This document shows positions 54-64,000 of a DNA stretch of 64,000 bases, piece after piece; the stretch's first letter is position 1; the number at the start of each line of letters is the position of its first letter. A model generated the notes under the pieces. The model did no database searches, was not told the origin of the DNA, and saw only the letters and a program-made list of their open reading frames with translations. This DNA comes from a virus, in IMG/VR virus record IMGVR_UViG_3300032249_000480, positions 32,001 through 96,000 of that record; one strand, 5' to 3'. Both the position numbers and the translations under genes were made by a program.

Positions 54-713
54 ATGAATAATGTTATAGATAATAATAAAATAGTTTATGATAAATCACA
101 TAAATTTTTTGAAAGAATTTTAGATATAGACACAAATAACTTAGCGTCTTATTTAATTGCACAATATGAAAGCATTAAAAATTTAACATTACCAGGAATT
201 ACTCAAATCAATAGACAAGATGTTTGGCAAGAGTCTGGAAGTCTATCTACAATAAAATGGAGAGAGTATAATGTATTTCAATTTTTAAATTCAGATATGT
301 ATAAATTGTATAAGACAATTTCAGAAGTTACAAAAGAAGCCTGTGAATATTATGGTGTTGATTTTGAAAAACAAGAATATGTAATGCAAGGCTGGTTTAA
401 TATTAATTATACAAAGTCTGGAAAGTTAGACTGGCATGATCATGGTATTCCTTATGCTCCAAATTTTCACGGGTATTATTGTGTAAAAGCAGAACCATCA
501 ACTACACATTATAGATTATTTAATGATATAAACCAAGAAATTGAAAATAAAAATATTGATAATAGAATGATCCTTTCTGAAATGGGGCATCCGCATGCTC
601 AGGCAGATTGGGACTGGGAAGGCCCAAGAATTACAATTGCTTATGATGTTGTTCCTTTAAAATACTTAATGGGCACAAAGACATCTGAGCAGCATTGGAT
701 TCCACTTATATGA
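54..713 (+). CDS. Putative 2OG-Fe(II) oxygenase (TIGR02466-like)
   Basis: WFNINY..GKLDWHDH, FHGYYCV, distal H (HPH) and RITIAYD match the HxD/H...H...R layout; ATG 54 preferred over TTG 30. Confidence 0.7.
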   Translation: MNNVIDNNKIVYDKSHKFFERILDIDTNNLASYLIAQYESIKNLTLPGITQINRQDVWQESGSLSTIKWREYNVFQFLNSDMYKLYKTISEVTKEACEYYGVDFEKQEYVMQGWFNINYTKSGKLDWHDHGIPYAPNFHGYYCVKAEPSTTHYRLFNDINQEIENKNIDNRMILSEMGHPHAQADWDWEGPRITIAYDVVPLKYLMGTKTSEQHWIPLI

Positions 714-1525
714 TAAAGATTAAAGTTTTTATACATTCTTATAAAAATAAAAATTTATTAGATTTTTGTGAAAACTTACAAAAAAATGCTTTTCATGAAG
801 TTGCAATTGATGTTTATGATCAAAACACTATTGATAGGTCAGAAGCGTTTTACAATAAAAAAAATATAAACTATAAACACATATTATGGGATGATAGAAA
901 AGGAATTTCATACTATAGAATGTTGAGTTTGCATGGAAGGTTTGACTATTTTTTATCAATATCTGATTTAACAATTTTTAAATCTGGGTGGGACTTAGAG
1001 TTAATAAAAGAATGTACAGATATGAATATAGTATCTGGCAAGAACTTGATATCTTTAAAGATAGATAATTTTTTTATTTTACAAGAAAGCGAAATATCTG
1101 AAAAAGTTTCTGAATCTCAATGGATAAATAAAGATTTTATATTTTTAAAAATGTCAAATGCTGTTTTGTTGTCTAAGTCTAAATTTTTAAAAAAATATGG
1201 TGAAAGTTTGTTTTTTTCAATATTGTTTTCAGAACTTAATTTTAAAATAAAAAGCATGTACAATTCCTTCTATGATAAAGAAATTGAAGAAGAAAAATAT
1301 TTGCCATATTCAAAATATCACGGATATAATAAGTTAATATCAATGATAAAAAATAAAGAAATTAAATATAAAAAGTTTGAAGAATATCATAAACTTGATT
1401 TATTAAAGTTAAATCTTTTGCCATTTGAAACTGATGATGTTTCATATTACAAGCCAATTTTTAATATAGACTTTGAAGAAGAAACTAGATTTCATCGCAA
1501 TATAAAAAAAATAGAGATTGTGTAG
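710..1525 (+). CDS. Degenerate GT60/GlcNAc-transferase-like protein
   Basis: Aligns by eye with the ORF at 63198 (VFIHSYKN / KGISYYR / DYFLSISDLTIFKSGWDL / GESLFFS) but lacks the DSH motif; ATGA overlap at 710-713. Confidence 0.6.
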   Translation: MIKIKVFIHSYKNKNLLDFCENLQKNAFHEVAIDVYDQNTIDRSEAFYNKKNINYKHILWDDRKGISYYRMLSLHGRFDYFLSISDLTIFKSGWDLELIKECTDMNIVSGKNLISLKIDNFFILQESEISEKVSESQWINKDFIFLKMSNAVLLSKSKFLKKYGESLFFSILFSELNFKIKSMYNSFYDKEIEEEKYLPYSKYHGYNKLISMIKNKEIKYKKFEEYHKLDLLKLNLLPFETDDVSYYKPIFNIDFEEETRFHRNIKKIEIV

Positions 1526-1528
1526 GAT

Positions 1529-2128
1529 GTGATGATGCATAGAATTACTATAGTAGATAATTTTATAGAAAAAGAAGATGCAGAAATATTAATTAGTGAA
1601 CAAAAAAATCCATCTGATATAAATCCATATCCAGAATATTATAAGAAAAGATATGGAGGAACTGCTTTCCCATATAACAATACTGTTATGAATATATTAA
1701 AAAAATATTCTATTAGTGCAAATCAAAAACATAAAGAGTTGAATGGTTTTATTAATCCAATATATACTTTTAAGGCTTTTGGATCTCACTGGCAAGCAGG
1801 AACAAAGGGAGATTTGCATTTAGATGCACAGGGACCAGAACCTTGGATTGAGTTTAGTACTATAATCTATTTGAATGATTCATCAGAATACAGTGGTGGT
1901 AAAATATATTTTCCAAATCAAAACTTTATGTATCAACCAAAAGCATATTCAGCAGTATTTTTTCCAAGTGCTGGATCAGAATATATTCACGGTATAACTG
2001 AAGTTACAAGTGGACACAGACACACTGCTTTATATATGCATACGAGTATTCCAGATAATGCAGATCCAGACTTTCTTGAAGAAAATACAATGCTAAGATG
2101 GGAAGCACAATATCATGGATTTAAATGA
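1529..2128 (+). CDS. Prolyl-4-hydroxylase-like 2OG-Fe(II) oxygenase
   Basis: HLD, IIYLND..YSGGKIYF, FFPS, HGITEVTSGHR. Confidence 0.85.
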   Translation: MMMHRITIVDNFIEKEDAEILISEQKNPSDINPYPEYYKKRYGGTAFPYNNTVMNILKKYSISANQKHKELNGFINPIYTFKAFGSHWQAGTKGDLHLDAQGPEPWIEFSTIIYLNDSSEYSGGKIYFPNQNFMYQPKAYSAVFFPSAGSEYIHGITEVTSGHRHTALYMHTSIPDNADPDFLEENTMLRWEAQYHGFK

Positions 2129-2789
2129 AATTGATTTTGAAATTTTAGATTTAGGACTTGTTTATTATAAAAATATAATAAAAAACCCACAACAATTAAT
2201 ACTAGATATTGAGTCATTAGATAAAAGTTTCAATGAGTCAAAAATTTCTTTCTCTGAAACTTCTGTAAGGCCATGGACTCCTTGGAAAAATGAAAGTGGA
2301 AATAAAGAAACATTTTGTTTACAAAAACTTATACCACAAGTAAAAGATATACAAGAAAGCGATATTTATAAAAATGAACAAATAAATATCTCTTCTCAAC
2401 TATTTGGCGCATTAGAAAATACTTTAAAACATTACTCAACAAAAATATATCCCTGGGCAGAAAAAAATATTAAATCAAGAGAGCAAAATATGCATTTATT
2501 AAGATATGATTATTCTGGATATTTACCAGCACATCAAGATCAAGGTATTAGTACTAGAGTTTTGTCTGTTTTACTTTATTTGAACGATGATTATGAAGGT
2601 GGAGAGATAGAGTTTAGGCACTCAGAAGTTAAGATTAAGCCAGAACCAGGAAGTGTATTATTTTTTCCATCCAATTTTTTATATATTCATGAAGTTCATC
2701 CAGTAACAAAAGGCCCTAGGTATGCTTTGCCAAATTGGTATCATAATGTACAATTAGATTTTCTGAAGCGGTCAACTGGGCAAGAATAG
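2115..2789 (+). CDS. Prolyl-4-hydroxylase-like 2OG-Fe(II) oxygenase
   Basis: LLRY, HQD, LLYLNDDYEGGEIEF, FFPSNFLYIHEVHPVTKGPRY. Confidence 0.9.
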   Translation: MDLNEIDFEILDLGLVYYKNIIKNPQQLILDIESLDKSFNESKISFSETSVRPWTPWKNESGNKETFCLQKLIPQVKDIQESDIYKNEQINISSQLFGALENTLKHYSTKIYPWAEKNIKSREQNMHLLRYDYSGYLPAHQDQGISTRVLSVLLYLNDDYEGGEIEFRHSEVKIKPEPGSVLFFPSNFLYIHEVHPVTKGPRYALPNWYHNVQLDFLKRSTGQE

Positions 2790-2812
2790 AATATAAATAA
2801 GAAAGGGAAAAC

Positions 2813-3439
2813 GTGAGCAATTTAAATAAAAGAGAAGACTATATTATAGAAGATGATAATTTTTTAACTTTGCAAGATCAACAAAATTTTGTTAATAAAA
2901 TTTTTATGAATAATGGACATAATGAAAATCCAGTAGCCAAATGGAGAGTTACAAACGGAACAGAAATTATTAAAAATTTAGAAGAAGGAACTTTTCCATA
3001 CAGAGACACTCCTTTAGCCTTTAATAATGAAAAATCAAAACCATTTTTTATGGTTTTAGGTGATTTAGAATTAGAAGACTTTAAAGATATTTTTGATAAA
3101 TTTTGTAATAAACATAATATAAAATATGACAAAATTTTAAGATCAAGAATTGCAATTACTGGAATGAACAACGATGATTATATGCATTATGCACATGTAG
3201 ATACCATAATTAAACATGATGTGTTTTTATATTATCTACATGATGTAGACGGAGATACAGTGTTTTATGATAAGTGGCTTGGGGATTCAATGGAAGATCC
3301 TAAGATTATAAAAAGAGTGTCTCCCAAAGGTGGAAAGGCTATAAGGTTTGACGGACACCAGTTTCACTCAAACTATACAACTAATCTAAAACAATTTCGT
3401 TGTGTTTTGAATGTATGTTACACCTTAAAAAAAGATTAA
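2813..3439 (+). CDS. Putative 2OG-Fe(II) oxygenase
   Basis: HVD, FLYYLHDVDGDTVFY, PKGGKAIRFDGHQFHS, RCVLN. Confidence 0.7.
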   Translation: MSNLNKREDYIIEDDNFLTLQDQQNFVNKIFMNNGHNENPVAKWRVTNGTEIIKNLEEGTFPYRDTPLAFNNEKSKPFFMVLGDLELEDFKDIFDKFCNKHNIKYDKILRSRIAITGMNNDDYMHYAHVDTIIKHDVFLYYLHDVDGDTVFYDKWLGDSMEDPKIIKRVSPKGGKAIRFDGHQFHSNYTTNLKQFRCVLNVCYTLKKD

Positions 3440-3440
3440 A

Positions 3441-4160
3441 ATGACATATCCAAAATATAATGATTTAATAGAAACAATTAGTCACTTACCATATAAAACT
3501 ATTTTGGTAGATGGGCCTAGAAGGTGTGCAACTAATTATACTAGAGCAAGCATAACATCTATGGTAAAAAATAATATAGTTTTTAGTCATTCAGACGCAT
3601 CTCATGATCCAAAAATATTTATTAAAAATAATAATTATTTGCATAGTGAAAATGTCTTACACATAATTCCAATTCGTAATCCAAAACAAGTTTTTATTTC
3701 TGCATTTATTATGTATGGTTACAATGATACAGAATATATCTTACAAATTTATAAAGGATTGTTAAACCAAGAAATTTTAAATTTTAAGAATTATCTTAAT
3801 TTAGAAAAAAAATATAAAAATACAGTTTTGTGTCCCATAGAACTTTTTAATAATAATGAAAATACAATATTAAACATTATTAATAAACAATATGATTTAA
3901 AATTAACAATAAGTGATTTTAATAAAGAAAAAGTTTTAGAAAGTCTTTCTTTATTTGAAGAAAAAGAATATGGTAAGAATGGTTTAATAAAATTTCACTC
4001 TTACCCAATCAAAGAACAAAAAACTGAAGAGTATAAAAATCAAATAAATTTTATGTCAAATCTAATTAATGAAGATAAAAAATCATTAAAAAAAATAGAA
4101 TTTCTTTCTTATGAATATGATTTATTTTTTGCTAATCAAAAAAAAGAGTGGGGCTTGTAA
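3441..4160 (+). CDS. Sulfotransferase-like P-loop protein
   Basis: GPRRCATNY resembles the 5'-PSB loop (PRSGT) and IRNPKQVFIS resembles the 3'-PB motif (RNPxDxxxS). Confidence 0.5.
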   Translation: MTYPKYNDLIETISHLPYKTILVDGPRRCATNYTRASITSMVKNNIVFSHSDASHDPKIFIKNNNYLHSENVLHIIPIRNPKQVFISAFIMYGYNDTEYILQIYKGLLNQEILNFKNYLNLEKKYKNTVLCPIELFNNNENTILNIINKQYDLKLTISDFNKEKVLESLSLFEEKEYGKNGLIKFHSYPIKEQKTEEYKNQINFMSNLINEDKKSLKKIEFLSYEYDLFFANQKKEWGL

Positions 4161-4201
4161 AATTGAATTGAAAAACTTATAACTAGATACTTTAAGAAAA
4201 T

Positions 4202-4241: not shown

Positions 4242-4790
4242 TTACTTAGGAAATTTAGACATCCACATTCTGGTCTTTGGGGTAATGCCCTTCCAAGAAG
4301 ACCAATCATCTCCACCCTTTGTCATGTAGTATGCAATCTCTGCATTCTTAACGGGATTGAATAGTTCAGCGTTAGACTCAAGATCAAACTTAGTTCTACG
4401 ATCAGGACCAAGGTTATCAATCATATTAATTTGAAACATGCCATAAGAAGAGTCCCCAGTCTTATGGTTTCCGTTGAAAGCCAATGGTCTACCATTAGAT
4501 TCTTTTTTTGCTACAGCCCAAGCCACTACAAGGTCATTACCCTTAAAGCCAACAAGAGACAGCAACTGTTTTAGTTCTAAATCAGTAAGATGAGTTTTAT
4601 TTTCAAAACTACTTAACATTTTTTCCTTAGAAACCAAAAAAACCGCCTCAGCGGTTGTTGAAACAGCATTCGTTTTAATACTTAGATTATTTTTAGTAGA
4701 CAAAGCGTTAGCATTGGCTGCTCCTACAACTGCAGTAAAACCAAGCACGGATGCGAGTACCCCTATTAGAAATTTTTGATCATTTTTCAT
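4242..4790 (-). CDS. Secreted lytic transglycosylase / lysozyme-like protein
   Basis: Signal peptide; catalytic ES (KKESNG), SYGMFQIN, LFNPVKNAEIA, WSSW; AGGAGG before ATG 4790. Confidence 0.8.
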   Translation of the reverse strand: MKNDQKFLIGVLASVLGFTAVVGAANANALSTKNNLSIKTNAVSTTAEAVFLVSKEKMLSSFENKTHLTDLELKQLLSLVGFKGNDLVVAWAVAKKESNGRPLAFNGNHKTGDSSYGMFQINMIDNLGPDRRTKFDLESNAELFNPVKNAEIAYYMTKGGDDWSSWKGITPKTRMWMSKFPK

Positions 4791-4836
4791 AGTTTCCTCC
4801 TTAGAAAACAATAACACCTGTTTGGTGTCATACTCT

Positions 4837-16866: not shown

Positions 16867-16892
16867 AAAATAGTTCTTAATTGAACCTGATT

Positions 16893-16922
16893 GGGGGGGC
16901 GGATAAAACCGCCCCTCCTTTC
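16893..16922 (+). terminator. Intrinsic terminator after the capsid gene
   Basis: GGGGGGGCGG-ataaaa-CCGCCCCTCC then TTT. Confidence 0.8.
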
Positions 16923-16938
16923 CACTTTAAGGAGAAAT

Positions 16939-17184
16939 ATGTCATATTCAAGTACAAATCCAAATCAAACATTAAATGCAGATGGTGCATTGGCAATTGG
17001 TAATGTAGGTGGAGTTATTATAATGGGTACGAATGGATTAATTACTCAAGATAATGCATTAGGGAATATTAATGGAGATGTAATTTTTGGGGATACAACA
17101 GGACCAAATGCAGTAAATCCATCAGGAATACCATCAGGTGGCAAAAAACCACAACAAAATAATTTTATTAGTTATAAAAGATAA
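16939..17184 (+). CDS. Small protein similar to the capsid N-terminal arm
   Basis: AAGGAG RBS; GDTTGPNAVNPSG versus capsid GVTTGPNAVSPTG. Confidence 0.7.
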   Translation: MSYSSTNPNQTLNADGALAIGNVGGVIIMGTNGLITQDNALGNINGDVIFGDTTGPNAVNPSGIPSGGKKPQQNNFISYKR

Positions 17185-33362: not shown

Positions 33363-34190
33363 ATGGCAACAGCAAAACCAGGTGATACCTTATCAGGTAT
33401 TGCAAAAGCAAACGGAACAACAGTTGCACAAATATTAACTGACAATCCAAAACTTGCTGCTCGTGCAGCAGCAGGTGAAACTGTATTATTTAGTGGAACA
33501 AATGTAAAAATTACAGCACCAAATACTGCAAGTAACCCGTATGGTGCAAATCAGTCTGGCAAGGGTGCAGGACTTGGAACAGCATCAGTTCCAATTTCTA
33601 CTGTTAACAGTGTTTTGGGTTCTTCTAATACATCTAATACTACTTCAACAATTATACCTAAGCCAACACAACCAACACAGCCACCAGAGCCTCCACCAAC
33701 AAATCCAATAGTTTATCCAACACCACCAAGCGCTCCGTCATCAACAAATACTACATCAACACCAGCAATTAAAACAGCCCCAATAGATACAGTATTATTT
33801 AATGATGACTTAATAGACAGTCAACTATACTTAGATATATTATTTGAAAATGTTGGTGGTCAAGAACTTCTAGCAATTTCAAGATATGATACTGTCAATG
33901 GTCAAAGTGTAAAATATCAACCAATTAAAAATCTAAAATTAATCCAACAAGAATATAATCCATTCAACCTAGTTAAACTGCAACAAACATCTGTAAATAT
34001 TTTTGATAACTTTTCTATAAAATTAAATGATAAAATCCCAACTTTAACAAATGATCCATCTGGAAATAATGCAAATGTTTGGGTAGATGTAGATGGATCT
34101 ATTGTGATAGAATTGATTAATATGCTTAATGATGAACAAGTTGAAGTTGAAATAGCGTATAATGGAACTATATATGAGGCAGGAATATAA
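33363..34190 (+). CDS. LysM-domain tail protein with Pro/Thr-rich linker
   Basis: KPGDTLSGIAKANGTTVAQILTDNP LysM; PKPTQPTQPPEPPPTNP linker. Confidence 0.8.
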   Translation: MATAKPGDTLSGIAKANGTTVAQILTDNPKLAARAAAGETVLFSGTNVKITAPNTASNPYGANQSGKGAGLGTASVPISTVNSVLGSSNTSNTTSTIIPKPTQPTQPPEPPPTNPIVYPTPPSAPSSTNTTSTPAIKTAPIDTVLFNDDLIDSQLYLDILFENVGGQELLAISRYDTVNGQSVKYQPIKNLKLIQQEYNPFNLVKLQQTSVNIFDNFSIKLNDKIPTLTNDPSGNNANVWVDVDGSIVIELINMLNDEQVEVEIAYNGTIYEAGI

Positions 34191-40698: not shown

Positions 40699-43600
40699 TT
40701 GAACTACGTTGGCTTACACGTACATACCCATTACTCACTATTTGACGGCGTAGCAACTCCACAAGAGTATGTTGATCGTGCTAGTGCTTTAGGTATGCCT
40801 GCAATCGCAATCACAGACCATGGTACGTTATCAGGTCATCGTGAGATGTATCGCATGGCTAAAGAAAAGGGTATTAAGCCAATTCTTGGCGTAGAAGGCT
40901 ATATGTGTGCAGATAGATTTGACAAGAGAGCAAAGGCAGATCGCACTGATCCTCTTGATATGGTCTACAACCATATAGTTCTTCTCGCTAAGAACCAATT
41001 AGGTTTAGAGAATTTAAATAAAATTAATGAAATTGCATGGACTGAAGGATTTTTTAGCAAACCACGTTTTGATTTTGAAACATTAGAAAAGTATCATGAA
41101 GGAATTATTGTTACTTCTGCTTGTCCTAGTGGAATAGTTGCTAAGGCAGTAGAACTAGGCGAACTAGCAATAGCAAAGAAAAACCTTGAGTGGTTTAAAA
41201 AAGTTTTTGGTGAAGACTATTATGTAGAAATTATGCCACACAACTCTGCTGAAATTAATAAGCAATTAGTTGAACTTGCTGATGAATTTAATATTCAAAT
41301 TGTAGCAACTCCAGACTGCCACCATGTTGATGAATCACAAAAAGAAATTCAAGAATTTAAATTGCTAATGAACTCTCATGCAAAGGTTCAAAAAAATATT
41401 ACATATGAAAAGTCTAAAAAGCAAGACGGAATGATGAAACGACTAGACTATCTTTATGGAGAAGATCGTCAAATGTCATTTAACAAGTTTGATATTCATT
41501 TACTTTCATACGAAGAGATTAAACTCGCTATGGAAAATCAGGGTATTGACAGACAAGACTTATACTCTAATAGTATTAGTATTGCAGATAAGATTGATGA
41601 CTATGATATTAAAGATGGACTAAACCTTCTTCCTGTTCAGTATAAAGAGCCAGGCAAACAACTAAAGAAATTGGCTCTTGAAGGTTTGGTTGCTAGAGGT
41701 TTTGGAGATAACCAAGAATATCTTGATCGTTTAGATGAAGAATTGAAAATTATTAATGATAAAAATTTTGGTCCATATTTTCTAGTTGTTCAAAGCATGA
41801 TTGCATGGGCAAAGAAAGAAGATATTATGGTTGGGCCTGGCCGTGGTTCTGCAGCAGGTTCATTACTTTGCTATTGTCTAAACATTACAGACATTGATCC
41901 AATCAAACATGGACTGCTATTCTTCAGATTTATTAATCCAGAACGTAATGACTTTCCAGATATTGATACAGATATTCAGGATACTCGTCGTGAAGAAGTA
42001 AAAGATTATCTTGTTAGACAGTATCGCCATGTTGCATCTATTGCTACCTTCCTTCAATTTAAAGATAAGGGAGTAGTTAGAGATATTGCACGAGTTCTCA
42101 ACATTCCACTTCCAGATGTTAATAAAGTTCTTAAACTTGTAGATACATGGGATGATTTTTGTAATTCAAAATCTACAAGAGAATTTCGTGACAAGTATCC
42201 AGAAGTAGAAATTTATGGAGAGCAACTTCGTGGTCGTATTCGTGGAACAGGTATTCACGCAGCAGGAGTTGTAACAAGTAAGGATCCAATTTTTAGATTT
42301 GCTCCAATGGAAACTCGTTCATCTCCAGGATCTGACGAAAGAATACCAGTTGTTGGTGTAGACATGTCAGAAGCAGAACGTATTGGTCTTATTAAGATTG
42401 ATGCTTTAGGTTTAAAAACTTTGTCTGTTCTTAAAAATACTCTTGATATTATTAAAGATCGTCATAAGAAAACCATTAATCTTCTTGAGGTTCCAATGGA
42501 TGACAAAAATGTTTATCAAATGCTTTCTGATGGATATACAAAGGGTGTTTTTCAATGTGAAGCAACTCCTTACACAAACCTTCTTGTTAAAATGGGTGTA
42601 AAAAATCTAGATGAACTTGCTGCTTCAAATGCATTAGTTCGTCCAGGTGCTGCTAATACTATTGGAAAAGATTACATTGCTCGCAAGCACGGTAAGCAAA
42701 ATGTTTCTTATAGTCATCAGGTTATGAAACCATTTACACAAGATACATACGGATGCATTCTATATCAGGAGCAAGTCATGCAGGCTTGCGTTCATCTTGG
42801 AGGAATGTCAATGTCTGATGCTGATAAAGTTCGTAAAATTATTGGTAAGAAAAAAGATGCTAAAGAATTTAATATATTTCAAGACCAGTTCGTTAAGGGT
42901 GCATCTCAATATATTAGTCCAAATGCTGCCTTAGATTTGTGGCATGACTTTGAAGCACACGCAGGGTATTCATTTAACAAATCACATGCCGTAGCATATT
43001 CAACATTATCTTATTGGACAGCATGGCTTAAATATCATTATCCATTAGAGTTTATGTATTCAGTATTAAAAAATGAAAAAGACAAGGATGCTCGCACAGA
43101 ATATCTAATTGAAGCAAAGCGCATGAATATTCCCATTAAATTGCCACATATTAATGAATCAGACACTGATTTTAAAATTGAAGGCAAAGGTATTCGTTTT
43201 GGATTAACTGGAATTAAGTTTATTTCAGATAACATTGCTTCAAAATATATTAAGGGTCGTCCTTTTAAATCATATAAAGAACTAGAAGAGTTTACTTTTA
43301 CAAAAGGTAACGGAGTTAATAGTCGTGCACTAAATGCTTTGCGTCTTATTGGAGCAGCAACATTTGCGGATCAACCAATAAATGAAAAAGAAGTAAAAGA
43401 AAATCTCTATGAGTTTCTTAATCTTCCAGAATTTAACATTACAATACCTTCTCATTATTATGCTTTTATTCAAGATATTGAAGAGTTTGAAGAGAAAGGT
43501 TCTTTTATTTTAATGGGAATGGTAAAATCAATTAAGCGAGGAACTGGATGGTCAAGGGTAGAAGTTTTAGATAAAACTGGAAGCGTAGGAATATTTGACG

Positions 43601-45476: not shown

Positions 45477-45756
45477 GGCTAAAAGAATTGGCGCTAAACA
45501 ACATAAAAATTCTGGTCGTAATACTCAAAAAGGTGATGCAACTTGGAAAGGCTTTGTGGTTGATTTTAAAGAAGTCTCCAAGTCTTTTACCCTAAATCAG
45601 GATGTTTGGGCTAAGGTAACTACAGATGCAATTAAAGCGGGTACAGACAAAGCACCAGCAATTGTAGTAATACTTGGAGAAGGAAATACAAAGGTAAGAC
45701 TTGCTATAATTGAGATGGAAATGTTAGAACAGTTAACGGAGGAACAATATGAGTAA
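45460..45756 (+). CDS. PD-(D/E)xK nuclease, Hjc-type resolvase-like
   Basis: E..A, NSGR..KGD, VVDFKE. Confidence 0.6.
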   Translation: MSEKNEAKRIGAKQHKNSGRNTQKGDATWKGFVVDFKEVSKSFTLNQDVWAKVTTDAIKAGTDKAPAIVVILGEGNTKVRLAIIEMEMLEQLTEEQYE

Positions 45757-46288
45757 TAATATACTTCTTGATAATGTTTTATCAGAAGAACAGGTTGAAA
45801 GAATTAAGCAGAAATCATTTAAATATATGACAGAACTTACAACCTTTGTAGGTGATTTTGATAAGGATGGAGATAAAACAAAATTAACTAAAATTGTTAA
45901 TAGTTTTACTGGAAGAGCATTGGTTCATTGTTTTGAACTAGATGATGACATTATTGATTCTTTTTTAAATTGCCTTAAATTAAATGGGTTTGATCAATAT
46001 TTTTATATAAATTCTACATCATATGCAGAATATAGTTTAAAGTATGGAAATCCAAAACTTCCAGAACATAGAGATAATCCAAACACATCTGATCATATTA
46101 TTGTTGATTATCAAATTGATTCTAATATTAACTGGCCAGTAATAGTTGATGACAATGAATACATCATGAAAGACAACTCTATGTTAGTTTTTAATGGGAT
46201 TGAACAATATCATTCAAGACCAAAGATTATTTTCAAAGATAAAGAATTTGTTAAAGTTTTACTTATACGATTTGATAGGATAATATAA
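45749..46288 (+). CDS. 2OG-Fe(II) oxygenase-like protein inserted in the recombination operon
   Basis: LPEHRD, WPVIVD, FNGIEQYHSR; visibly more AT-rich than neighbours. Confidence 0.65.
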   Translation: MSNNILLDNVLSEEQVERIKQKSFKYMTELTTFVGDFDKDGDKTKLTKIVNSFTGRALVHCFELDDDIIDSFLNCLKLNGFDQYFYINSTSYAEYSLKYGNPKLPEHRDNPNTSDHIIVDYQIDSNINWPVIVDDNEYIMKDNSMLVFNGIEQYHSRPKIIFKDKEFVKVLLIRFDRII

Positions 46289-46593
46289 TGGAACAAAAAG
46301 AAACAACACTAGATATGGTAAATGGATTAGCAGAAATTGCTGATTATATGCAGGATGAGGAACTGACACAGGCATTAACTTTTATTGCTAAGATTATTAT
46401 AAAGCCTGATATTCCGAATCAGGTAGCAACTATTGAAATTGTTAGACTTCAGGCTATTGCTGCAAAAATGGCATTCAAGGCTACGTGGATGGCCAATGTT
46501 GATAAATCTGACAGAGGAAAGAAAAATCTATATTATACTGCTGCAGAATCAATTAACAACTTAGTTGCAGCACTCAAATACACAACACGATAG
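46288..46593 (+). CDS. Hypothetical helical protein
   Basis: Coupled ORF. Confidence 0.65.
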   Translation: MEQKETTLDMVNGLAEIADYMQDEELTQALTFIAKIIIKPDIPNQVATIEIVRLQAIAAKMAFKATWMANVDKSDRGKKNLYYTAAESINNLVAALKYTTR

Positions 46594-46629
46594 TCTGATA
46601 TACTTAATAAAACAGAAAAGAGTTTTAAA

Positions 46630-47442
46630 TTGACAAAAAATTTATTAAAAAGCGTAATGATTAAAACAGCAGAAAAGAAAATGACAATAGATAATCAGGC
46701 TTTAATTTCAAAGATTCAGTCTGGATATATTGAGGGACGTACTGCAAAGCATACACAAAAGAAAACTTTTGCTCCTTCTACAATTGCTTGGAGTCATGGA
46801 GAGTGTCCACGTTATTGGTATCTAGCATTTGAAGGTAATACCTTTGAAGATGATACAACTCCATATAGCGCAGCAAATATGTCATCTGGAACTATGGGCC
46901 ATGACAGAATTCAGGGTGCAATGATGAAGGCTGGCGTTGCTACAATATTTAAAGATGATGCTGGAAATGATACAACAGAGTTTAAAGTTTTTAATACTGA
47001 TCCCCCAATTTTTGGGTATGGCGATGTCATGCTTAATTGGGAAGGTGAGGAAATTGTTGGTGAAATTAAAACAATGATGAATGAAGCATTTGAGTATCGT
47101 AAAAATTCAGGCACACCTAAGTCTGGACACGTTATTCAGTTGCTTATTTATATGAAGATTCTTAAGAAAGCAAAGGGGATGCTTATCTATGAGAATAAAA
47201 ATAATCATGAACTACTAATCTTTGAGGTTGGTGTTAATGATCAGTATAGACAATGGGTAGACTATGCGTTTAACTGGATGCGAGAAGTTCGCAAATCTTG
47301 GGAAGATAAAGTTCTTCCTACAAAAAACTACAGATCTAATTCAAAGATTTGTAAAGGTTGCCCAGTAAAAGAAGCGTGTGGTAATGCAGGGGTAGGATCT
47401 GTAAAGATCGCATCTCTGGAGGAACTGAGTGAAACTATGTAA
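46630..47442 (+). CDS. Cas4/RecB-like PD-(D/E)xK exonuclease
   Basis: ECPR, GTMGHDRIQ, GYGD, EIKT, QLLIYM, CKGCPVKEAC. Confidence 0.85.
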   Translation: MTKNLLKSVMIKTAEKKMTIDNQALISKIQSGYIEGRTAKHTQKKTFAPSTIAWSHGECPRYWYLAFEGNTFEDDTTPYSAANMSSGTMGHDRIQGAMMKAGVATIFKDDAGNDTTEFKVFNTDPPIFGYGDVMLNWEGEEIVGEIKTMMNEAFEYRKNSGTPKSGHVIQLLIYMKILKKAKGMLIYENKNNHELLIFEVGVNDQYRQWVDYAFNWMREVRKSWEDKVLPTKNYRSNSKICKGCPVKEACGNAGVGSVKIASLEELSETM

Positions 47443-51985: not shown

Positions 51986-52987
51986 ATGAATTCATTTAAG
52001 AAAGTATCGCTAATCATCGCTGCAGCCCTGACTAGCACAATGCTTGTAGCACCAGCAGCACAAGCAAATTCTGGAACTGTTACATTAACAGTAGCAGGAT
52101 CTGCAGCAACAGGTGGAACAGTAGTAACAACTCCTGTATCACTACCAGTACCAGCAGACAACAGCATTGATGCAGCAGATGCATTAAAAATTGCAGTTAC
52201 TGGTGTAGACACTGGAACTGTAGTAACAGCAGTTGCAGTAAATGCAACAATTGTTCCTGCTCTAGCAACAACTGGAACAGCAGTAACAGCATTTTCTGGA
52301 ACATCAACACTGTCAATTGGGACAGGAACTGGAACATCAGCAGACTTTTATGTATATACTAAAAGTACAGCAGTAGGATCAGTATCTATTACTCGTGCTG
52401 GAACAACAACAGTTTATTATGTTCAAGGTACCGCAGGTGCACTGAACTCAATTACGCTGACCGCTCCTGCATCAGCAGCAGCAGGTACATCACAGGTGCT
52501 TAAAGTATCTGGATTTGACGTGTTTGGTAATCTAAAGAGCGGAGCCACTATCAATACATTGGTTTCAAGTTCTGGAGCAGCACTTGTAACAGCGCTGACA
52601 ACTGACACAGCAACAGCAACACTTGGAACAAAAGAGCAGACAGTAACAATGCCTGCAACTGGTTCAGTAACAGTAGTTGCATATGCAACAGTAGCAACAG
52701 CCGTAACAGGTTTAGCAGCACCAGTAGGTTCTGTAAGTGCTACAATTGCAGTTCGTGATATTGCTGGAGAACTAGCAGCAAAGAATGCAGAAGTTGCTTC
52801 TTTGACGGCACAACTTGCAGCAGAAAAGGCTGGACGTGCAGCAGATAAGGTTGCATCAGATAAGGCGCTTGCAGATGCGAAGGTTGCATCAGATGCAATA
52901 ATTGCCTCTATCAAGAAGTCATTCAACGATCTTGCAAAGAAGTGGAATAAAAAGAATCCACGTGCTAAGGTTACACTTATTAAGTAA
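51986..52987 (+). CDS. Secreted Ala/Thr-rich surface (S-layer-like) protein
   Basis: Signal peptide ending AQA, beta-rich body, coiled coil and basic C terminus; biased codons. Confidence 0.65.
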   Translation: MNSFKKVSLIIAAALTSTMLVAPAAQANSGTVTLTVAGSAATGGTVVTTPVSLPVPADNSIDAADALKIAVTGVDTGTVVTAVAVNATIVPALATTGTAVTAFSGTSTLSIGTGTGTSADFYVYTKSTAVGSVSITRAGTTTVYYVQGTAGALNSITLTAPASAAAGTSQVLKVSGFDVFGNLKSGATINTLVSSSGAALVTALTTDTATATLGTKEQTVTMPATGSVTVVAYATVATAVTGLAAPVGSVSATIAVRDIAGELAAKNAEVASLTAQLAAEKAGRAADKVASDKALADAKVASDAIIASIKKSFNDLAKKWNKKNPRAKVTLIK

Positions 52988-53003
52988 TTAATACTTACAA
53001 TTT

Positions 53004-53032
53004 AGGGAGTCATTAATTTGACTCCCTTTTTT
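53004..53032 (+). terminator. Intrinsic terminator
   Basis: AGGGAGTCA-ttaatt-TGACTCCCT then T-run. Confidence 0.88.
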
Positions 53033-53096
53033 GTATAATAAAATGATATAATAAGCCTAGTAGTCATAACACCACGCTGATTACAAGGAGAAAAGT

Positions 53097-54530
53097 TTGA
53101 AAAAGTTATTACGTATAGCCCTAATCTTGACCCTAGCATTTTTCCCACTAGTTTTTGCTTTAGATAAAGCAGGGGCAGAAGAAACTCCTACTGTAACAAC
53201 TATAGTAACTCCTGGTGGAGACGATGTATCTTATCAAATCCCACTAACAGTAACAGTTGTTTATGACGGTGTTACGTATGAAAGGGTTTATGCTACGACT
53301 AATTCTGTTATCACATTTGGAAGACCTGATGGAACATACTGGGATTATCCATTAACTCCATCTATATCAATTGAATCTCGTGATTGGTGGGCTTTGCCAC
53401 AACAGATGCCAGATACTCATTTTATTATTAATGTTAGTGATGGTGGATTTCAAGTAGATGGTGCATATCGTCCTTATGGATCTTTTACTGGTGATGTAAC
53501 AAGTATTGTTATTACTGCACAGATTCAGACAGATAATACTGTTGCTTATACATATGCAGTTAATGGACCTTTACAAGGTAATGAAAGAACAGGTGCTCGT
53601 TTAAATAATGGAACAGTTGTACCTTTAGAACAAGCAAATATTATTGAAGTTGTTGTTCCTCCAGTTTTAGAGCCAGAGCCAATTGCTCCAACCCCTACGC
53701 CTACACCAACGCCTGAGCCTACGCCAACCCCTACTCCTACGCCTGAGCCAATCATTCCAGAACCACAACCAATACCAGTGCCTCAACCAGAACCTGTGAT
53801 TCCTGCTCCAAGACCTGAACCAGTTGTAATTCCTGATCCTCCTGCGGTTATTCCTGATCCACCAGTAGTGGAACCTGAGCCTCCAATTGTAGAGCCTGAG
53901 CCTCCAACAGAAGAACCTGAACCACCTACACCTATAGAAGAACCTCCTGCAGAAGCAGAAGAACCTCCAGTAGAGGCTGAAGAACCGCCTTTGGTGGAAG
54001 AAGAAGCCCCTAATTTAGTAGAAGAACCACCTTTAGTGGCAGATGAAAATTCTACTGATGAAGAAAAAGAAATTATTGCTGAGGCTTTAATAGAAGCAGC
54101 AAATGGTGAAGCCATTACTGCAGAGGATATAGCAGAAGCAGGTCTTACTTATGCTGACCTACCATCTCAGACTCCTGTTGAAGTTCGTCAAGATGAAAAT
54201 GGAAACGAAGTAATTATTACGGCTGAAGTTGCAGCAGCGCTTGTGCTACTAGAAAACCCAGCAGAACTAATAAGCGCAATTTTTACTGACCCAGCACAAG
54301 CACTTTTGGCTATAGGAAGCATTGGTGCAGATATGTCTGAAGAAGAGCGTGAAGAAGCAACAGAAATGGTTGTTGCAACAGTTGTAGCAGCAGGTGCAGC
54401 AATAAATGCCGCAGGTGCAGCAGCGGGGGCAGCAACATCCACTGGAGGATCTACTGGAAGTAATTCTGGCGGATCAGGTGGTGGAGGAGCCTCTGGCGAA
54501 TCCAAGGGAGTAAGGAGAAGAAAACCATGA
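53097..54530 (+). CDS. Secreted / membrane-anchored Pro-Glu-rich protein
   Basis: Signal peptide, globular N domain, PT/PEP/EEPP stalk, Ala-rich hydrophobic segment, basic RRRKP end. Confidence 0.75.
   Translation: MKKLLRIALILTLAFFPLVFALDKAGAEETPTVTTIVTPGGDDVSYQIPLTVTVVYDGVTYERVYATTNSVITFGRPDGTYWDYPLTPSISIESRDWWALPQQMPDTHFIINVSDGGFQVDGAYRPYGSFTGDVTSIVITAQIQTDNTVAYTYAVNGPLQGNERTGARLNNGTVVPLEQANIIEVVVPPVLEPEPIAPTPTPTPTPEPTPTPTPTPEPIIPEPQPIPVPQPEPVIPAPRPEPVVIPDPPAVIPDPPVVEPEPPIVEPEPPTEEPEPPTPIEEPPAEAEEPPVEAEEPPLVEEEAPNLVEEPPLVADENSTDEEKEIIAEALIEAANGEAITAEDIAEAGLTYADLPSQTPVEVRQDENGNEVIITAEVAAALVLLENPAELISAIFTDPAQALLAIGSIGADMSEEEREEATEMVVATVVAAGAAINAAGAAAGAATSTGGSTGSNSGGSGGGGASGESKGVRRRKP
53688..54032 (+). 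repeat. Coding low-complexity tandem repeats (PT, PEP, VIPDPP, EEPP)
   Basis: Near-duplicate CCAACCCCTAC..CCTAC..ACGCCTGAGCC units and repeated GAAGAACC. Confidence 0.75.
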
Positions 54531-57382: not shown

Positions 57383-57583
57383 ATGGAATCAACAAAGAGA
57401 ACATTGCTTAAAACAGCAAGTTGGGAAACTTTTCACCTTGTTGGTGTAGCAGGAGTAATTTATTTATTTACTGGTGAATGGGAATACGCAAGCCTTGGAG
57501 CATTACTATACATTGGTTGGGAAGCACTTGGATACTTTCTTCATGAAAGAGTATGGGCAAAGTTTGGTAAAAAAATTAAATGA
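57383..57583 (+). CDS. DUF2061-family membrane protein
   Basis: ESTKRTLLKTASW...YFLHERVW. Confidence 0.8.
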   Translation: MESTKRTLLKTASWETFHLVGVAGVIYLFTGEWEYASLGALLYIGWEALGYFLHERVWAKFGKKIK

Positions 57584-58212
57584 GCAATGTTCCAGATAAT
57601 ATTTACATAGATCATATAAAAAAAATTGGAAAAGATGTTAAAAATATAAATGTTTTTGAAAATTTTTTAAATGATGAAGATTATAATTATCTGTATGAAG
57701 AATGTTTAAATTCAGAATGGTCTGAAAATTACAGGCAAAATCTTAGAAAAGATAAAACAATTTTAAGCAATAACGCAAAACAAATATTTAAAAATGTTGC
57801 AAATATTTTAAGTAATAAAATAAAAGAAATTTATAATGTAGATGTTTCAATATCAAGTGAACCATTTTTAATAAGATGGGATATGGGTTCTGAAATGGGC
57901 GAACATATTGACGATTTTTCTGTTTTTCATTATCATTTTGCTGCTATTTTGTATTTAAATGATAACTACTCTGGAGGAGAAATATGCTTTCCAGATTATA
58001 ACCTTACAATTAAACCAAAAGGAAACTCTTTAGTTTTATTTCCTGGCAATAAATATTATTCTCATGAAGTATTAAAAAATACATCTGGAGAAAGATACAC
58101 TATGCCAATGTGGTTTAAGTTAAATGATTCTGATTTTCAAGGAACTGGAACTGCATTTAACCTTATAGATATAAACGATTATAAATATAATAATTGGGAA
58201 AACAAAATATAG
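57580..58212 (+). CDS. Prolyl-4-hydroxylase-like 2OG-Fe(II) oxygenase
   Basis: HID, ILYLNDNYSGGEICFP, FPG...HEV..TSGERY. Confidence 0.88.
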   Translation: MSNVPDNIYIDHIKKIGKDVKNINVFENFLNDEDYNYLYEECLNSEWSENYRQNLRKDKTILSNNAKQIFKNVANILSNKIKEIYNVDVSISSEPFLIRWDMGSEMGEHIDDFSVFHYHFAAILYLNDNYSGGEICFPDYNLTIKPKGNSLVLFPGNKYYSHEVLKNTSGERYTMPMWFKLNDSDFQGTGTAFNLIDINDYKYNNWENKI

Positions 58213-60609: not shown

Positions 60610-60616
60610 TAAAACT

Positions 60617-61687: not shown

Positions 61688-61695
61688 GGCATAAG

Positions 61696-62440: not shown

Positions 62441-62454
62441 AGAAAAGAAAAATA

Positions 62455-62661: not shown

Positions 62662-62663
62662 CC

Positions 62664-62945
62664 ATGAAACAGCATTTATGGAAAGATGATGCAAGATGTT
62701 TAGACATGGATACTAATCTATTTTTTGAAAAGTATGAAGATGAAGAATCTTTAAGACCAGCAATAGATAGCATATGTAAACAATGCCCAGTATTAAAAAC
62801 ATGTTTTGCCGTAGGAATTTCCAATAAAGAGTGGGGAGTTTGGGGAGGAATCTTCATAGAAAATGGTAAAATATCTAGAGAATTTAATAAACATAAATCT
62901 AAACAAGATTGGGGAAACACGTGGAAATCCTTAACAATGGATTAG
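62664..62945 (+). CDS. whiB: WhiB-family Fe-S transcription regulator
   Basis: W...ARC....LFF, CKQCPVLKTC, WGVWGG. Confidence 0.92.
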   Translation: MKQHLWKDDARCLDMDTNLFFEKYEDEESLRPAIDSICKQCPVLKTCFAVGISNKEWGVWGGIFIENGKISREFNKHKSKQDWGNTWKSLTMD

Positions 62946-62958
62946 CAGGCTGCGCCTA

Positions 62959-63198
62959 ATGGCACTTGGCTATACAGATGAAATGCGTAAGGCTTTTCAT
63001 GCAATCCCAGCACCTAAAGGTTTTGGTGTTGATTTAATTGATAATACTTATTTTATTACAATTCGTATTGATGAAAAAGCATTTCTTTATTTAAATCATG
63101 ATCAAAAAATGGAAGCATTTGAATATGTTATTAAAGTTCAAAAGGCTTTAGAGGCTTCAGGGGCTGTTGTTCAAGTTGTTAGAAAACCATTAAAGTAA
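62959..63198 (+). CDS. Hypothetical protein
   Basis: YTDEMRKAFHAIPAPKGF. Confidence 0.65.
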   Translation: MALGYTDEMRKAFHAIPAPKGFGVDLIDNTYFITIRIDEKAFLYLNHDQKMEAFEYVIKVQKALEASGAVVQVVRKPLK

Positions 63199-64000
63199 TG
63201 TCAATATTTATTTCTGTTGCAAGTTATCGTGATCCACATCTTCAACTAACACTTAAAAGTGCTGTTGAAAATGCAAATAATCCTGCAGGTTTATTCTTTG
63301 GTATTGTTAATCAAGATACTGCTAGGAATGAAGTTGATTATTCCTTTTTGCCAGATTATTCTGTAATTAAAATGCATCCAAGAAATGCAAAAGGTGTTGG
63401 CTATGCAAGAAGCAAGGCAATGTCTTTATACAATGGAGAAGATTATTTTTTACAGGTTGATTCTCATACTCAGTTTTCAAAAGACTGGGATTTAAAATCC
63501 ATAAAACAATTAAAGACTGCACAGGAAATTGCAGGACATAAAAAAGTTATAATGTCCTGCTATCCTGGTCCTTATAGTTTAGATAATAATCAGGTATTCA
63601 TACATACAATATCTACAGAAGAACATCCTGTAGAGCCAATGAAGCATATTGCTAAACTAAGAGTTGACGATCAGTGGTCTGCAATCAGGGTTCCAATGGA
63701 TAGTCCAAATTCTGAAAGACCAGAACTTTCTAATACAGTTCTTGGAGGATATATTTTTGCTACTGGTAATATTGTAAATGAAATTCCATATGATGAAGAA
63801 ATAAGTTTTATGGGTGAAGAAATTTGTTTTGCAATGAGGGCTTGGACAAGGGGATGGGACATATATTCACCATCAATACCAATTGTTTATCATTTTTATA
63901 GAAGGCCAGGATATCCTAAAGTATGGTCTGATGATGTAGTTAGAGAACAGAACTGGGATCAACTTCAAGAAATATCAAAAGAAAAACAAAGAAAAGTTTT
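63198..64000 (+). CDS. GT60-type GlcNAc transferase ([Skp1]-hydroxyproline GlcNAc-transferase-like), truncated by window end; absent from ORF track
   Basis: Hand translation is open to the window end: MSIFISVASYRDP, KGVGYAR, YFLQVDSHTQFSKDWD, PYD..FMGEE, RAWTRGWDIYSP, VYHFY. Confidence 0.85.
   Translation, partial: MSIFISVASYRDPHLQLTLKSAVENANNPAGLFFGIVNQDTARNEVDYSFLPDYSVIKMHPRNAKGVGYARSKAMSLYNGEDYFLQVDSHTQFSKDWDLKSIKQLKTAQEIAGHKKVIMSCYPGPYSLDNNQVFIHTISTEEHPVEPMKHIAKLRVDDQWSAIRVPMDSPNSERPELSNTVLGGYIFATGNIVNEIPYDEEISFMGEEICFAMRAWTRGWDIYSPSIPIVYHFYRRPGYPKVWSDDVVREQNWDQLQEISKEKQRKV

Follow-up and report, generated by a model that had tools for sequence, protein, structure and literature searches.

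An uncultured phage with a 105-kb genome appears to carry two separable protein-tailoring modules, parts of which lie in the 64,000-nucleotide stretch analyzed here (the window, genome positions 32,001 to 96,000). We prefer this reading, with moderate confidence, to a single pathway in which a protein is hydroxylated and then decorated with GlcNAc. The host of the phage is probably an actinobacterium. Comparison with relatives delimits the gene sets: hydroxylases accompany a proline-rich tail-fiber protein, and a GT60 glycosyltransferase accompanies a sugar-chain operon, which is found also in relatives lacking any hydroxylase. Family memberships, catalytic residues, synteny, and co-occurrence were established here. 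What is new is the separability of GT60 from the oxygenases and the retention of a GT60-like gene without the DxH motif beside two prolyl 4-hydroxylase (P4H) genes.

Oxygenases of the phage genome

Eight 2OG-Fe(II) oxygenase genes were found in the genome, six within the window and two outside it (genome positions 30090-30683 and 101359-101970). The six, all on the plus strand, had been listed in a first-pass annotation, and all were retained: three by PF13640, one by fold, one by a language-model and structure match, and one as probable from its motif and profile. The PF13640 (2OG-FeII_Oxy_3) genes encode P4H-type oxygenases at 1529..2128 (31 bits, E 4.7e-7), 2115..2789 (66 bits, E 5.9e-18), and 57580..58212 (48 bits, E 2.6e-12; solitary), and these are also the three in which the previously reported pattern YLND..GG..F / H.V...G.R was seen. 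The product of 1529-2128 has the HxD..H motif and the arginine and clusters with one orthogroup of the oxygenase arrays (support 92/89). The top PDB sequence matches of 2115-2789 were the Bacillus anthracis P4H structures 3itq/5hv0 (E 5e-6), and the best match of genome 101359-101970 was 5c5t, the chlorovirus PBCV-1 vCPH (E 1.8e-5).

The gene at 2813..3439 encodes a PHD/P4H-like oxygenase without a Pfam match. H128, D130, H185, and R196 are invariant among 11 homologues, and an hhalign comparison with the P4H family gave 93% probability (E 3.5e-7). Its AF2 model (pLDDT 64) matched 183 PDB entries at E<=1e-3 with Foldseek, among them PHD2, PBCV-1 vCPH, OGFOD1, and P3H1. The product of 54..713, of the Oxy_5/TIGR02466 type, had no match in a Pfam search, but was grouped by the ESM Atlas with PF13759 (2OG-FeII_Oxy_5) clusters (score 0.96, structural TM 0.78) and matched phrog_2696 (E 4e-7). 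The gene at 45749..46288 belongs to an unnamed family with an HxD..HxR motif, in which H107, D109, H155, and R157 are invariant (75 homologues; hhalign 69% probability, E 4.3e-5). Its identity as an oxygenase is probable rather than proven, because no Pfam 2OG family was matched by any of the 75 sequences. Its paralogue is the gene at genome 30090-30683.

Across this phage and six relatives, the HxD..H motif and the R/K residue were invariant in 39 of 39 P4H-family proteins, which by these residues are predicted to be catalytically competent. The tree of the family resolves into at least six orthogroups, each with about one member per genome, and therefore indicates distinct specificities.

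Module A and the tail of the FN3 protein

Module A spans genome positions 27.2 to 36.2 kb, with its right half at window positions 54-4160, and is flanked by tail-fiber genes and by SLT lysozyme/RNR genes. It begins just upstream of the window with a gene for an FN3 protein (fn3 E 3e-10) whose C-terminal tail is hypervariable and of low complexity. Five oxygenases follow: two of the P4H type, the only PF13640 members of the module in this genome, one PHD-like, one of the Oxy_5 type, and one of the unnamed family (genome 30090-30683). The remaining genes encode two dUTPase-fold Cys proteins, the GT60-like protein lacking DxH, and two proteins of no assigned function. The last gene (3441..4160, plus strand, 239 aa) gave nothing significant in Pfam, PHROGs, or NCBIfam and is a singleton among seven genomes. 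The right boundary is an SLT-type lysozyme gene (4242..4817, minus strand; PF18896 E 6e-16) whose position is kept in relatives.

The FN3 gene directly precedes the oxygenase array, and its tail may be of the (PFFP)n, (FFAPPG)n+Hint, PF/GF, (PT)n, or Gly-rich type. In this phage it consists of a degenerate Pro/Phe/Gly tract (at most 9 Pro in any 30 aa) followed by a Hint-like domain, recognized by motif only and not matched in a Pfam search. Among 46 nonredundant IMG/VR loci, P4H genes lay downstream of FN3 in all six with Pro-rich tails and in none of the 40 with other tails (Fisher p = 1e-7, uncorrected for phylogeny). The Pro-Phe-tailed loci may represent few clades. P4H counts over whole records agreed: 7 and 9 where the tail is Pro-Phe, 1 where it is (PT)n, and 0 where it is Gly. 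The relative G020 has four P4H genes, only one of which is beside its FN3 gene; there the orthologue of 54-713 adjoins a P4H gene and the gene of a GF/PF-tailed FN3 protein.

The substrates, order of steps, sugar identity, and virion effects proposed for either module are predictions from sequence. The Fe(II)/2OG oxygenases of module A would hydroxylate prolines of the FN3 tail, and possibly further residues, in the host cytoplasm, and the genes downstream of FN3 would constitute a tailoring set matched to the tail. This FN3 protein, which the first-pass annotation did not name, is the best candidate substrate. The broader proposal that the phage hydroxylates its own Pro-rich proteins stands insofar as, for the P4H-type genes, no role has better support than action on virion-associated proteins, but the two substrates originally named, although present as described, fared less well. 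The Pro-rich linker of the LysM protein (33363..34190, plus strand; LysM E 4.8e-7) was Pro-rich in the P4H-bearing G000, G012, and G014 and not in the P4H-free G022 and G023, which slightly favors it as a possible secondary substrate, but it was not Pro-rich in G020 either. The PT/PEP-rich protein (53097..54530, plus strand), with an N-terminal hydrophobic segment resembling a signal peptide by eye, is an unlikely substrate; its orthologues are just as Pro-rich in G022 and G023.

A viral precedent is PBCV-1, whose vCPH takes Pro-rich repeats (PAPK) of viral proteins as its substrate. The systems share a viral P4H-type enzyme with viral Pro-rich repeat proteins as likely substrates, and vCPH is both the best PDB sequence match of genome 101359-101970 and a top fold match of 2813-3439. 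Unlike PBCV-1, this is a tailed bacterial phage with Pro-Phe rather than PAPK repeats, its relatives hold up to nine paralogues in arrays, and the candidate substrate is encoded in synteny with the enzymes.

The GT60-like gene of module A (710..1525, plus strand) had been described as a degenerate GT60 paralogue embedded in the oxygenase cluster. It is a distant GT-A homologue without DxH: it scored 22.2 bits with PF11397 (cutoff 21), aligned with the phage's own GT60 over 49 aa (BLASTP E 9e-7), and matched the GT60 family profile over 202 columns (hhalign 93% probability, E 3.5e-7). The embedding was likewise borne out, and the module is kept in a distant relative: an orthologue in G020 (28% identity, 261 aa, E 1e-27) belongs to the corresponding module, along with two P4H genes. 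In place of DSH, this pair has SDL or SPD.

GT60 and the glycan operon of module B

The GT60 gene (plus strand) runs from 63198 through the window end at 64000 to genome position 96115, 115 bases beyond the window. Its earlier recognition from sequence hallmarks was confirmed by profile search: the full-length protein of 305 aa matched PF11397 with 198 bits (E 4.6e-58), and SYRD, DSH, GEE, and GWDIYSP are present, with D88/S89/H90, E207/E208, and G219/D221/P225 invariant among 13 homologues. There are 447 homologues, many on phage contigs of about 100 kb.

Module B occupies genome positions 94.7 to 101.3 kb, from window position 62664. A WhiB-like regulator gene (62664..62945, plus strand; PF02467 E 5.8e-13) is followed by f16 (62959..63198, plus strand; 79 aa), whose stop overlaps the GT60 start, then by GT60, f17, and a divergent operon encoding GT4, a 253-aa protein, a GT47/RXYLT1-like protein, an FkbM methyltransferase, and a GT1-like protein. 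Family searches of f16, including Pfam, gave no match. In a survey of 80 related loci, f16 was near GT60 in 74 (overlap offset -3 in 37) and f17, likewise a small gene, in 77. Of the 31 loci that were 12 kb or longer, 29 contained WhiB-like genes, 29 GT4, 23 GT1_2, 18 GT47, 16 FkbM, and 5 P4H.

GT60 would most likely prime a protein acceptor with HexNAc, and the operon would extend and methylate the primed glycan. GT60 includes Ser/Thr pp-alphaGlcNAc transferases (PMC8724618), and its characterized enzymes are, according to reviews, polypeptide transferases (PMC8724618, PMC6939170); with Ser/Thr also serving as acceptors in the family, a GT60 assignment need not mean that hydroxyproline is modified. 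GT60 enzymes can modify Ser/Thr within disordered regions rich in Pro/Thr (PMC8724618), and this phage encodes several such regions. The enzyme shares its CAZy/Pfam family with the mucin-type GT60 proteins of Trypanosoma cruzi and Dictyostelium but, unlike those eukaryotic Golgi type II membrane proteins, is a bare catalytic domain. The passage of PMC11600133 citing Freeman 2023 describes mycobacteriophage operons of glycosyltransferases and O-methyltransferases that glycosylate capsid and tail tube. Module B resembles the cluster O/F operon as described there in combining several glycosyltransferases (GT4, GT47-like, GT1-like) with a methyltransferase (FkbM), a likeness in gene families and not gene-by-gene homology, and differs from it in having GT60 attached. 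By this analogy to the system in that passage, the best reading is that module B works comparably to cluster O glycosylation.

Coupling of the modules and alternative readings

In the Skp1 pathway of Dictyostelium and Toxoplasma, the prolyl 4-hydroxylase PhyA acts first, then Gnt1, a GT60 enzyme, and then further glycosyltransferases. The first-pass annotation proposed a similar relay here, in which P4H-type enzymes convert prolines of a phage or host protein to 4-hydroxyproline, GT60, perhaps with 710-1525, adds alpha-GlcNAc, and the operon extends the glycan as PgtA does. The enzyme families are as named, with intact catalytic residues, and as in the Skp1 pathway one genome holds cytoplasmic P4H-type oxygenases, GT60, and glycosyltransferases able to extend a glycan. 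Gnt1 is specific for hydroxyproline (PMC6939170). One P4H gene (genome 101359-101970) heads the glycan operon, a second (57580) is found 5 kb upstream of GT60, locus L011 has a PF13640 insertion immediately ahead of GT60, and G000 and G020 both keep the GT60-like gene next to two P4H genes. The two extra P4H-type genes inserted near module B may therefore provide a local link between the modules. However, canonical GT60 is uncoupled from P4H in relatives: P4H lay within 10 kb of GT60 in only 5 of the 80 loci, at varying positions. In G023 (94% complete), GT60 and the operon are present, but PF13640, PF13759, and the remaining oxygenase families of this analysis have no member, and in jumbo phage XacN1, which has a GT60-like gene, PF13640 was not found. 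Both P4H genes nearest GT60 are gene-sized insertions missing from the closest relatives (86-90% GT60 identity), where genome 89580-90228, holding the 57580 gene, is reduced to 3 bases (L008 and L009); by this comparison the insertions are apparently recent. The embedded GT60-like protein lacks DxH, GT60 has Ser/Thr-specific members, Skp1 was not found among the phage-encoded proteins, and the setting is a bacterial cytoplasm with many oxygenase paralogues instead of one. We therefore consider the relay unlikely and, as the best reading, regard module B as ancestrally independent of hydroxyproline. Its parts are themselves separable, as the operon occurs without GT60 in G022, and GT60 without the operon in G020 and G013.

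The acceptor of module B could instead be a host glycan. GT60 and the operon would then alter a glycan of the host envelope or a lipid-linked precursor, which could, for instance, prevent superinfection or help release, with no phage protein glycosylated. Module B lies among nonstructural genes beside WhiB, the hydrophobic N terminus of f17 resembles a membrane anchor by eye, and the operons of relatives are accompanied by sugar-nucleotide epimerase genes. The polypeptide acceptors of characterized GT60 enzymes and the virion proteins modified by the cluster O operon, the nearest phage precedent in the passage cited above, make this quite improbable. Hypermodification of DNA bases in the manner of TET/JBP, with the dUTPase-fold proteins acting on nucleotides, is very improbable. 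It would accommodate the dUTPase/dCTP-deaminase-like fold of phrog_7084 and a Tet_JBP match of 2115-2789 (21 bits), but the latter is below the cutoff of 34.9 in a protein scoring 66 bits with PF13640, and a genome search found no C5 DNA methylase, canonical dUTPase, or above-cutoff Tet_JBP match. To our knowledge, GT60 is not among the known DNA glycosyltransferase families. Doubtful, too, is a role of the oxygenases in tailoring a small peptide or secondary metabolite, or in hydroxylating host proteins or metabolites during takeover, rather than in hydroxylating virion proteins. Iyer, Abhiman, de Souza, and Aravind (2010, PMC2938197) assigned tandem arrays of phage dioxygenases that include a dUTPase-fold Cys protein, such as the array of Synechococcus phage Syn9, to the tailoring of peptides or secondary metabolites. 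Module A likewise combines tandem, mutually divergent dioxygenases with such a protein (phrog_7084, invariant C69), SDR is also found in the arrays, the solitary P4H genes lie among early genes, and PF13640 also spans PiuC/PKHD-type enzymes. Unlike in Syn9, whose host is a cyanobacterium and not the actinobacterium inferred here, the phage array showed neither a tryptophan halogenase nor a JmjC member, a GT60-like gene is embedded, and the array follows a Pro-rich-tailed FN3 protein at the fiber locus. No NRPS, ATP-grasp, or halogenase was seen among the minority of ORFs near the arrays to which a family match was assigned. Array size follows the Pro content of the adjoining FN3 tail, and protein prolyl hydroxylases top the matches by both structure and sequence.

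The virus and its oxygenases

The virus record (104,786 bp, direct terminal repeats, GC of ~35%), whose bases 32001-96000 form the window, is estimated to be complete and encodes a portal, a protease, a major capsid protein, a terminase, a DnaB-like helicase, and a class I RNR. Its capsid protein shares ~45% identity with the capsid proteins of Streptomyces siphophages, and a WhiB-family regulator is encoded at 62664-62945. These two features, the only basis for a host assignment, indicate that the host is probably an actinobacterium; a search of genome contigs for the host with the RNR protein returned no match. The first 20 kb of the window had no megablast match among GenBank phages. The capsid protein is at least 75% identical in more than 600 IMG/VR records, indicating that the phage belongs to a large uncultured lineage. 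A short ORF 3' of the capsid gene (16891-17184) groups with the capsid protein family in all-against-all clustering.

The first-pass annotation listed six 2OG-Fe(II) oxygenases, three of them with a prolyl 4-hydroxylase (P4H)-type pattern, and these families were borne out, with one gene (45749) only probable. The P4H-type family PF13640 (2OG-FeII_Oxy_3; cutoff, 27 bits) matched ORFs 1529, 2115, and 57580 with 31, 66, and 48 bits, respectively, and the same three carry the YLND..GG..F and H.V...G.R motifs. The HxD..H iron triad and the R/K for the 2OG C5 carboxylate are invariant in all 39 P4H family members compared. The best PDB relatives of the P4H-type proteins are P4Hs (3itq and 5c5t), and PiuC/PKHD-type enzymes match as well. 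Peptidyl-proline is the putative substrate of the three proteins, a reading supported by their P4H relatives and by co-occurrence with proline-rich tails.

ORFs 54, 2813, and 45749 matched no Pfam 2OG family. ORF 54-713 was grouped with PF13759 (Oxy_5) clusters by the ESM Atlas (score, 0.96; structural TM, 0.78). For ORF 2813-3439, H128, D130, H185, and R196 are invariant in 11 homologs, hhalign against the P4H family gave 93%, and the best PDB matches to the AF2 model were PHD2, PBCV-1 vCPH, OGFOD1, and P3H1. The family of ORF 45749-46288 has no name and numbers at least 290 sequences. H107, D109, H155, and R157 are invariant in 75 of them, none of which matched a Pfam 2OG family, and hhalign against the P4H family gave 69% (E value, 4.3e-5). 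Membership in the DSBH 2OG-Fe(II) superfamily is supported for all three, most weakly for ORF 45749-46288, which is probably a 2OG oxygenase. Two further oxygenase genes lie outside the window, at genome positions 30090-30683 and 101359-101970.

Five oxygenase genes of four families form a tandem array at genome 29.3-35.5 kb together with two phrog_7084 genes (L004:17356-18114, genome 29356-30114, and L003:21-752, genome 31320-32051). The gene order is phrog_7084, 45749-type oxygenase, a gene of no known function, phrog_7084, Oxy_5 oxygenase, GT60-like gene, two P4H genes, PHD-like oxygenase, and a second gene of no known function. Window positions 54-4160 are the right half of this remodeled cassette; the GC content of positions 1-4000 is 26.6% compared to ~35% for the genome, as would be expected of an island that is hypervariable or was exchanged recently. 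The phrog_7084 model (pLDDT, 83) has a weak fold likeness to dUTPase and dCTP deaminase (E value, ~1e-3), and the family has an invariant C69 and motifs resembling dUTPase motifs 1 to 4. The dioxygenase array of Syn9 includes a dUTPase-fold protein with a conserved cysteine (Iyer et al., PMC2938197). Like the Syn9 array, the array here combines divergent tandem 2OG dioxygenases with such a conserved-Cys protein, here phrog_7084, and it is therefore of the same type.

Proline-rich tails at the fiber locus

Relatives carry tandem arrays of 5 to 9 P4H-family genes at a fixed locus between the tail-fiber genes and the SLT lysozyme/RNR genes. In a maximum-likelihood tree, the 39 P4H family members fell into six or more orthogroups, each represented roughly once per genome, indicating that the paralogs are old and presumably differ in specificity. 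Directly 5' of each array lies a gene for an FN3 protein (fn3 E value, 3e-10 in locus L099) whose C terminus is a hypervariable low-complexity tail. By genome, the tail is (PFFP)n in G012, G019, G021, and G025, (FFAPPG)n with a Hint-like end in G013, PF/GF rich in this phage (G000) and G020, (PT)n in G014, and Gly rich in G022 and G023. The number of P4H genes follows the tail type: 7 to 9 with Pro-Phe tails, 1 with (PT)n, and 0 with Gly tails. Among 46 nonredundant IMG/VR loci with 4 kb or more of downstream sequence, P4H genes were found downstream of all 6 Pro-rich tails and none of the 40 other tails (Fisher P value of 1e-7, with relatedness ignored).

Few auxiliary metabolic genes of aquatic viromes are as abundant as the P4H-type genes, whose viral use has been called cryptic (PMC9301287). 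In this genome and hundreds of related contigs, they lie directly behind a fiber-locus protein, and a Pro-rich tail predicts their presence and rough number. The best-supported putative function of the oxygenases is prolyl hydroxylation of the phage's own Pro-rich fiber-associated protein, with the FN3 tail as a concrete candidate substrate open to expression and testing.

The FN3 gene of this genome (genome 28163-29320; L004:16163-17320) lies 2.7 kb before the window. Its product has a degenerate Pro/Phe/Gly tract, PFQPFGFTPFGFSPPPVFSFSPPGGGFSPGPGY, followed by a domain of ~150 amino acids with Hint-like motifs and a Ser at the expected Cys, and the G013 ortholog ends in a classical C...HN Hint-like domain; Pfam did not detect a Hint domain in the FN3 proteins. 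The fiber-locus protein of G014 consists almost entirely of (PT)n between Cys-rich ends. The G014 cassette, noted at L111:942-1775 and L111:5620-6642 (G014 40942-41775 and 45620-46642), comprises a single P4H gene, an NAD-dependent sugar epimerase/dehydratase gene (Pfam E value, 1e-35), and genes for three ~300-amino-acid proteins of no known function, and looks like a mucin-type variant.

Two other proteins had been proposed as substrates in the first pass. The linker of the LysM protein (33363) is Pro rich in P4H-bearing G000, G012, and G014 and not Pro rich in P4H-free G022 and G023, but G020 breaks this pattern, so that the case for the LysM protein is weak. The PT/PEP protein (53097), which is equally Pro rich in P4H-free genomes and has an N-terminal hydrophobic segment resembling a signal peptide, is unlikely to be modified by a cytoplasmic enzyme. 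In the array-rich genome G012, the linker of the LysM-protein ortholog (52696-53532; L122/L123 region) is extreme, PPYVAPYVPPYVPPYFPSTPPPPPPPPPPP, and forms a second Pro/aromatic tract away from the fiber cassette.

The GT60 gene and its neighborhood

The ORF at 63198, which extends 115 bases beyond the window end, was originally proposed to encode a GT60 glycosyltransferase, and the profile search upholds this. It matched PF11397 with 197.8 bits (cutoff, 21) over profile positions 1-43 and 101-349 of 352, and D88-S89-H90 (DSH, the GT-A metal-binding DxH) and E207-E208 (GEE, the C-terminal acidic motif) are invariant in 13 homologs of 24 to 74% identity. The ORF is thus clearly predicted to be a GT60 enzyme, whose putative activity is retaining alpha transfer from a UDP-GlcNAc donor to a polypeptide. 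No solved GT60 structure turned up in the PDB when GT60 was used as a sequence or profile query. The best 120 of its 447 homologs are all phage-like proteins without names. The GT60 family contains Ser/Thr-directed polypeptide GlcNAc transferases as well as the hydroxyproline-specific Gnt1 (PMC8724618, PMC6939170); membership therefore tells nothing of a hydroxyproline acceptor.

We examined 80 IMG/VR loci with GT60 identities of 47 to 89%, 31 of them at least 12 kb long. A 79-amino-acid gene whose stop overlaps the GT60 start (f16) is present in 74 of the 80 loci, and a 122-amino-acid gene (f17) with a hydrophobic N terminus resembling a membrane anchor is present in 77. The 31 longer loci encode WhiB (29 loci), GT4 (29), GT1_2 (23), GT47-like (18), a 253-amino-acid protein of no known function (18), FkbM (16), a sugar-nucleotide epimerase (13), and P4H at varying positions (5). 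NCBIfam, and Pfam searched at E values of ≤10, had nothing for f16, f17, 3441-4160, or genome 98042-98803, 30686-31336, and 104057-104587. The f16 gene (62959-63198) has a near-invariant Pro19-Lys20 within an IPAPKG stretch; its product may serve GT60 as a partner or as an acceptor. In one relative, two GT60 paralogs flank the glycan operon (L224:2662-3582 and L224:7230-8186). Two FkbM-type methyltransferase genes are present in the genome (both minus strand), one just upstream of the fiber genes (24928-25584) and the other inside the glycan operon (99637-100380).

The first-pass annotation had coupled GT60 to P4H in a Skp1-style relay, with P4H hydroxylating proline and GT60 adding GlcNAc. 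Gene co-occurrence speaks against this coupling for the canonical GT60. A P4H gene lies within 10 kb of GT60 in only 5 of the 80 loci. In close relatives (GT60 86 to 90% identical), GT60 and the operon that follows it are retained with ~88% DNA identity, and both P4H genes near GT60 are absent as indels, genome 89580-90228 corresponding to 3 bases and 101300-102060 to ~170 bases. G023 (94% complete) has GT60 and the operon with no PF13640, PF13759, or other oxygenase family member, and PF13640 is likewise missing from the Xanthomonas jumbo phage XacN1, which carries a GT60-like gene. Of the other near-complete records, G022 has the operon but lacks GT60, and in G013 and G020 GT60-like genes are present but the operon is not. 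Unlike the hydroxyproline-specific Gnt1 subfamily, which is paired with PhyA, the phage GT60 shows no genomic dependence on P4H, and unlike the Gnt1/Skp1 system, the phage genome has no Skp1 acceptor gene (no PF01466 match).

Judged by gene content, the canonical GT60 is part of a separate predicted glycan module, ancestrally independent of P4H. The test of the GT60-P4H link and the separability of the two modules are new; we found no prior description of phage GT60, or of P4H together with Gnt1 in phages, in the literature. The separation keeps a tempting, unsupported Skp1 analogy out of the annotation. GT60, previously known from protists, is widespread in this phage lineage and tied to a methylated-glycan operon, suggesting that virion or target glycosylation, so far seen in mycobacteriophages, reaches phages of uncultured freshwater actinobacteria.

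The GT60-like protein and alternative readings

ORF 710-1525, inside the oxygenase cluster, had been read as a degenerate GT60 paralog. Its PF11397 match covers just 75 residues, at 22.2 bits (cutoff, 21). The E value of a BLASTP comparison with the GT60 of the same phage was 9e-7, and hhalign against the phage GT60 family gave 93% (E value, 3.5e-7; 202 columns), so that the ORF is probably a distant GT60 homolog. The DxH motif is missing, DSH being replaced by S-D-L here and by S-P-D in the G020 ortholog, which is 28% identical and has no Pfam match. The block consisting of a gene of no known function, phrog_7084, GT60-like, P4H, and P4H is repeated in the more distant G020 (43% GC), indicating a conserved family under selection rather than a copy in decay. 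This conserved GT60-like/P4H block is a new finding. Among 79 fiber-locus loci and 80 GT60 loci, the DxH-less gene was found only in G000 and G020; it is therefore rare and no general feature of the arrays.

Of the hydroxylate-then-GlcNAc scheme, hydroxylation of the phage's own Pro-rich fiber-associated protein is the part best supported, and the canonical GT60, lying in a separate module, drops out. A hydroxyproline-GlcNAc step may exist in two cases only: with the rare GT60-like protein that lacks DxH, or in G000 if a local coupling arose there recently. It is conceivable, but in our view improbable, that phages of lake actinobacteria have swappable fiber-locus cassettes of substrate plus tailoring enzyme and that, in G000, hydroxylation of the Pro/Phe-rich tail is coupled to a noncanonical GT60-like enzyme without DxH, which would bind hydroxyproline or glycosylate it. 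If true, bacterial viruses would have their own counterpart of the hydroxyproline glycosylation of extensin or Skp1, and the abundant cryptic viral P4H "auxiliary" genes would gain a defined structural substrate.

The functions assigned to both modules are putative, and other targets were considered. Oxygenases and a glycosyltransferase could together hypermodify DNA, and a Tet_JBP match is indeed present, but it is below threshold; since the genome lacks a C5 methylase, a canonical dUTPase, and any Tet_JBP match that reaches the cutoff, this reading is unlikely and was rejected. The oxygenases may instead act on a small molecule or secondary metabolite, as proposed for the Syn9 array, but such a role does not account for the way array size follows tail composition. 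The glycan module, for its part, could target host envelope glycans instead of proteins. The only family clearly common to both modules is phrog_7084, members of which occur inside the oxygenase arrays and also adjoin GT60 in G014, G023, L241, and L246.
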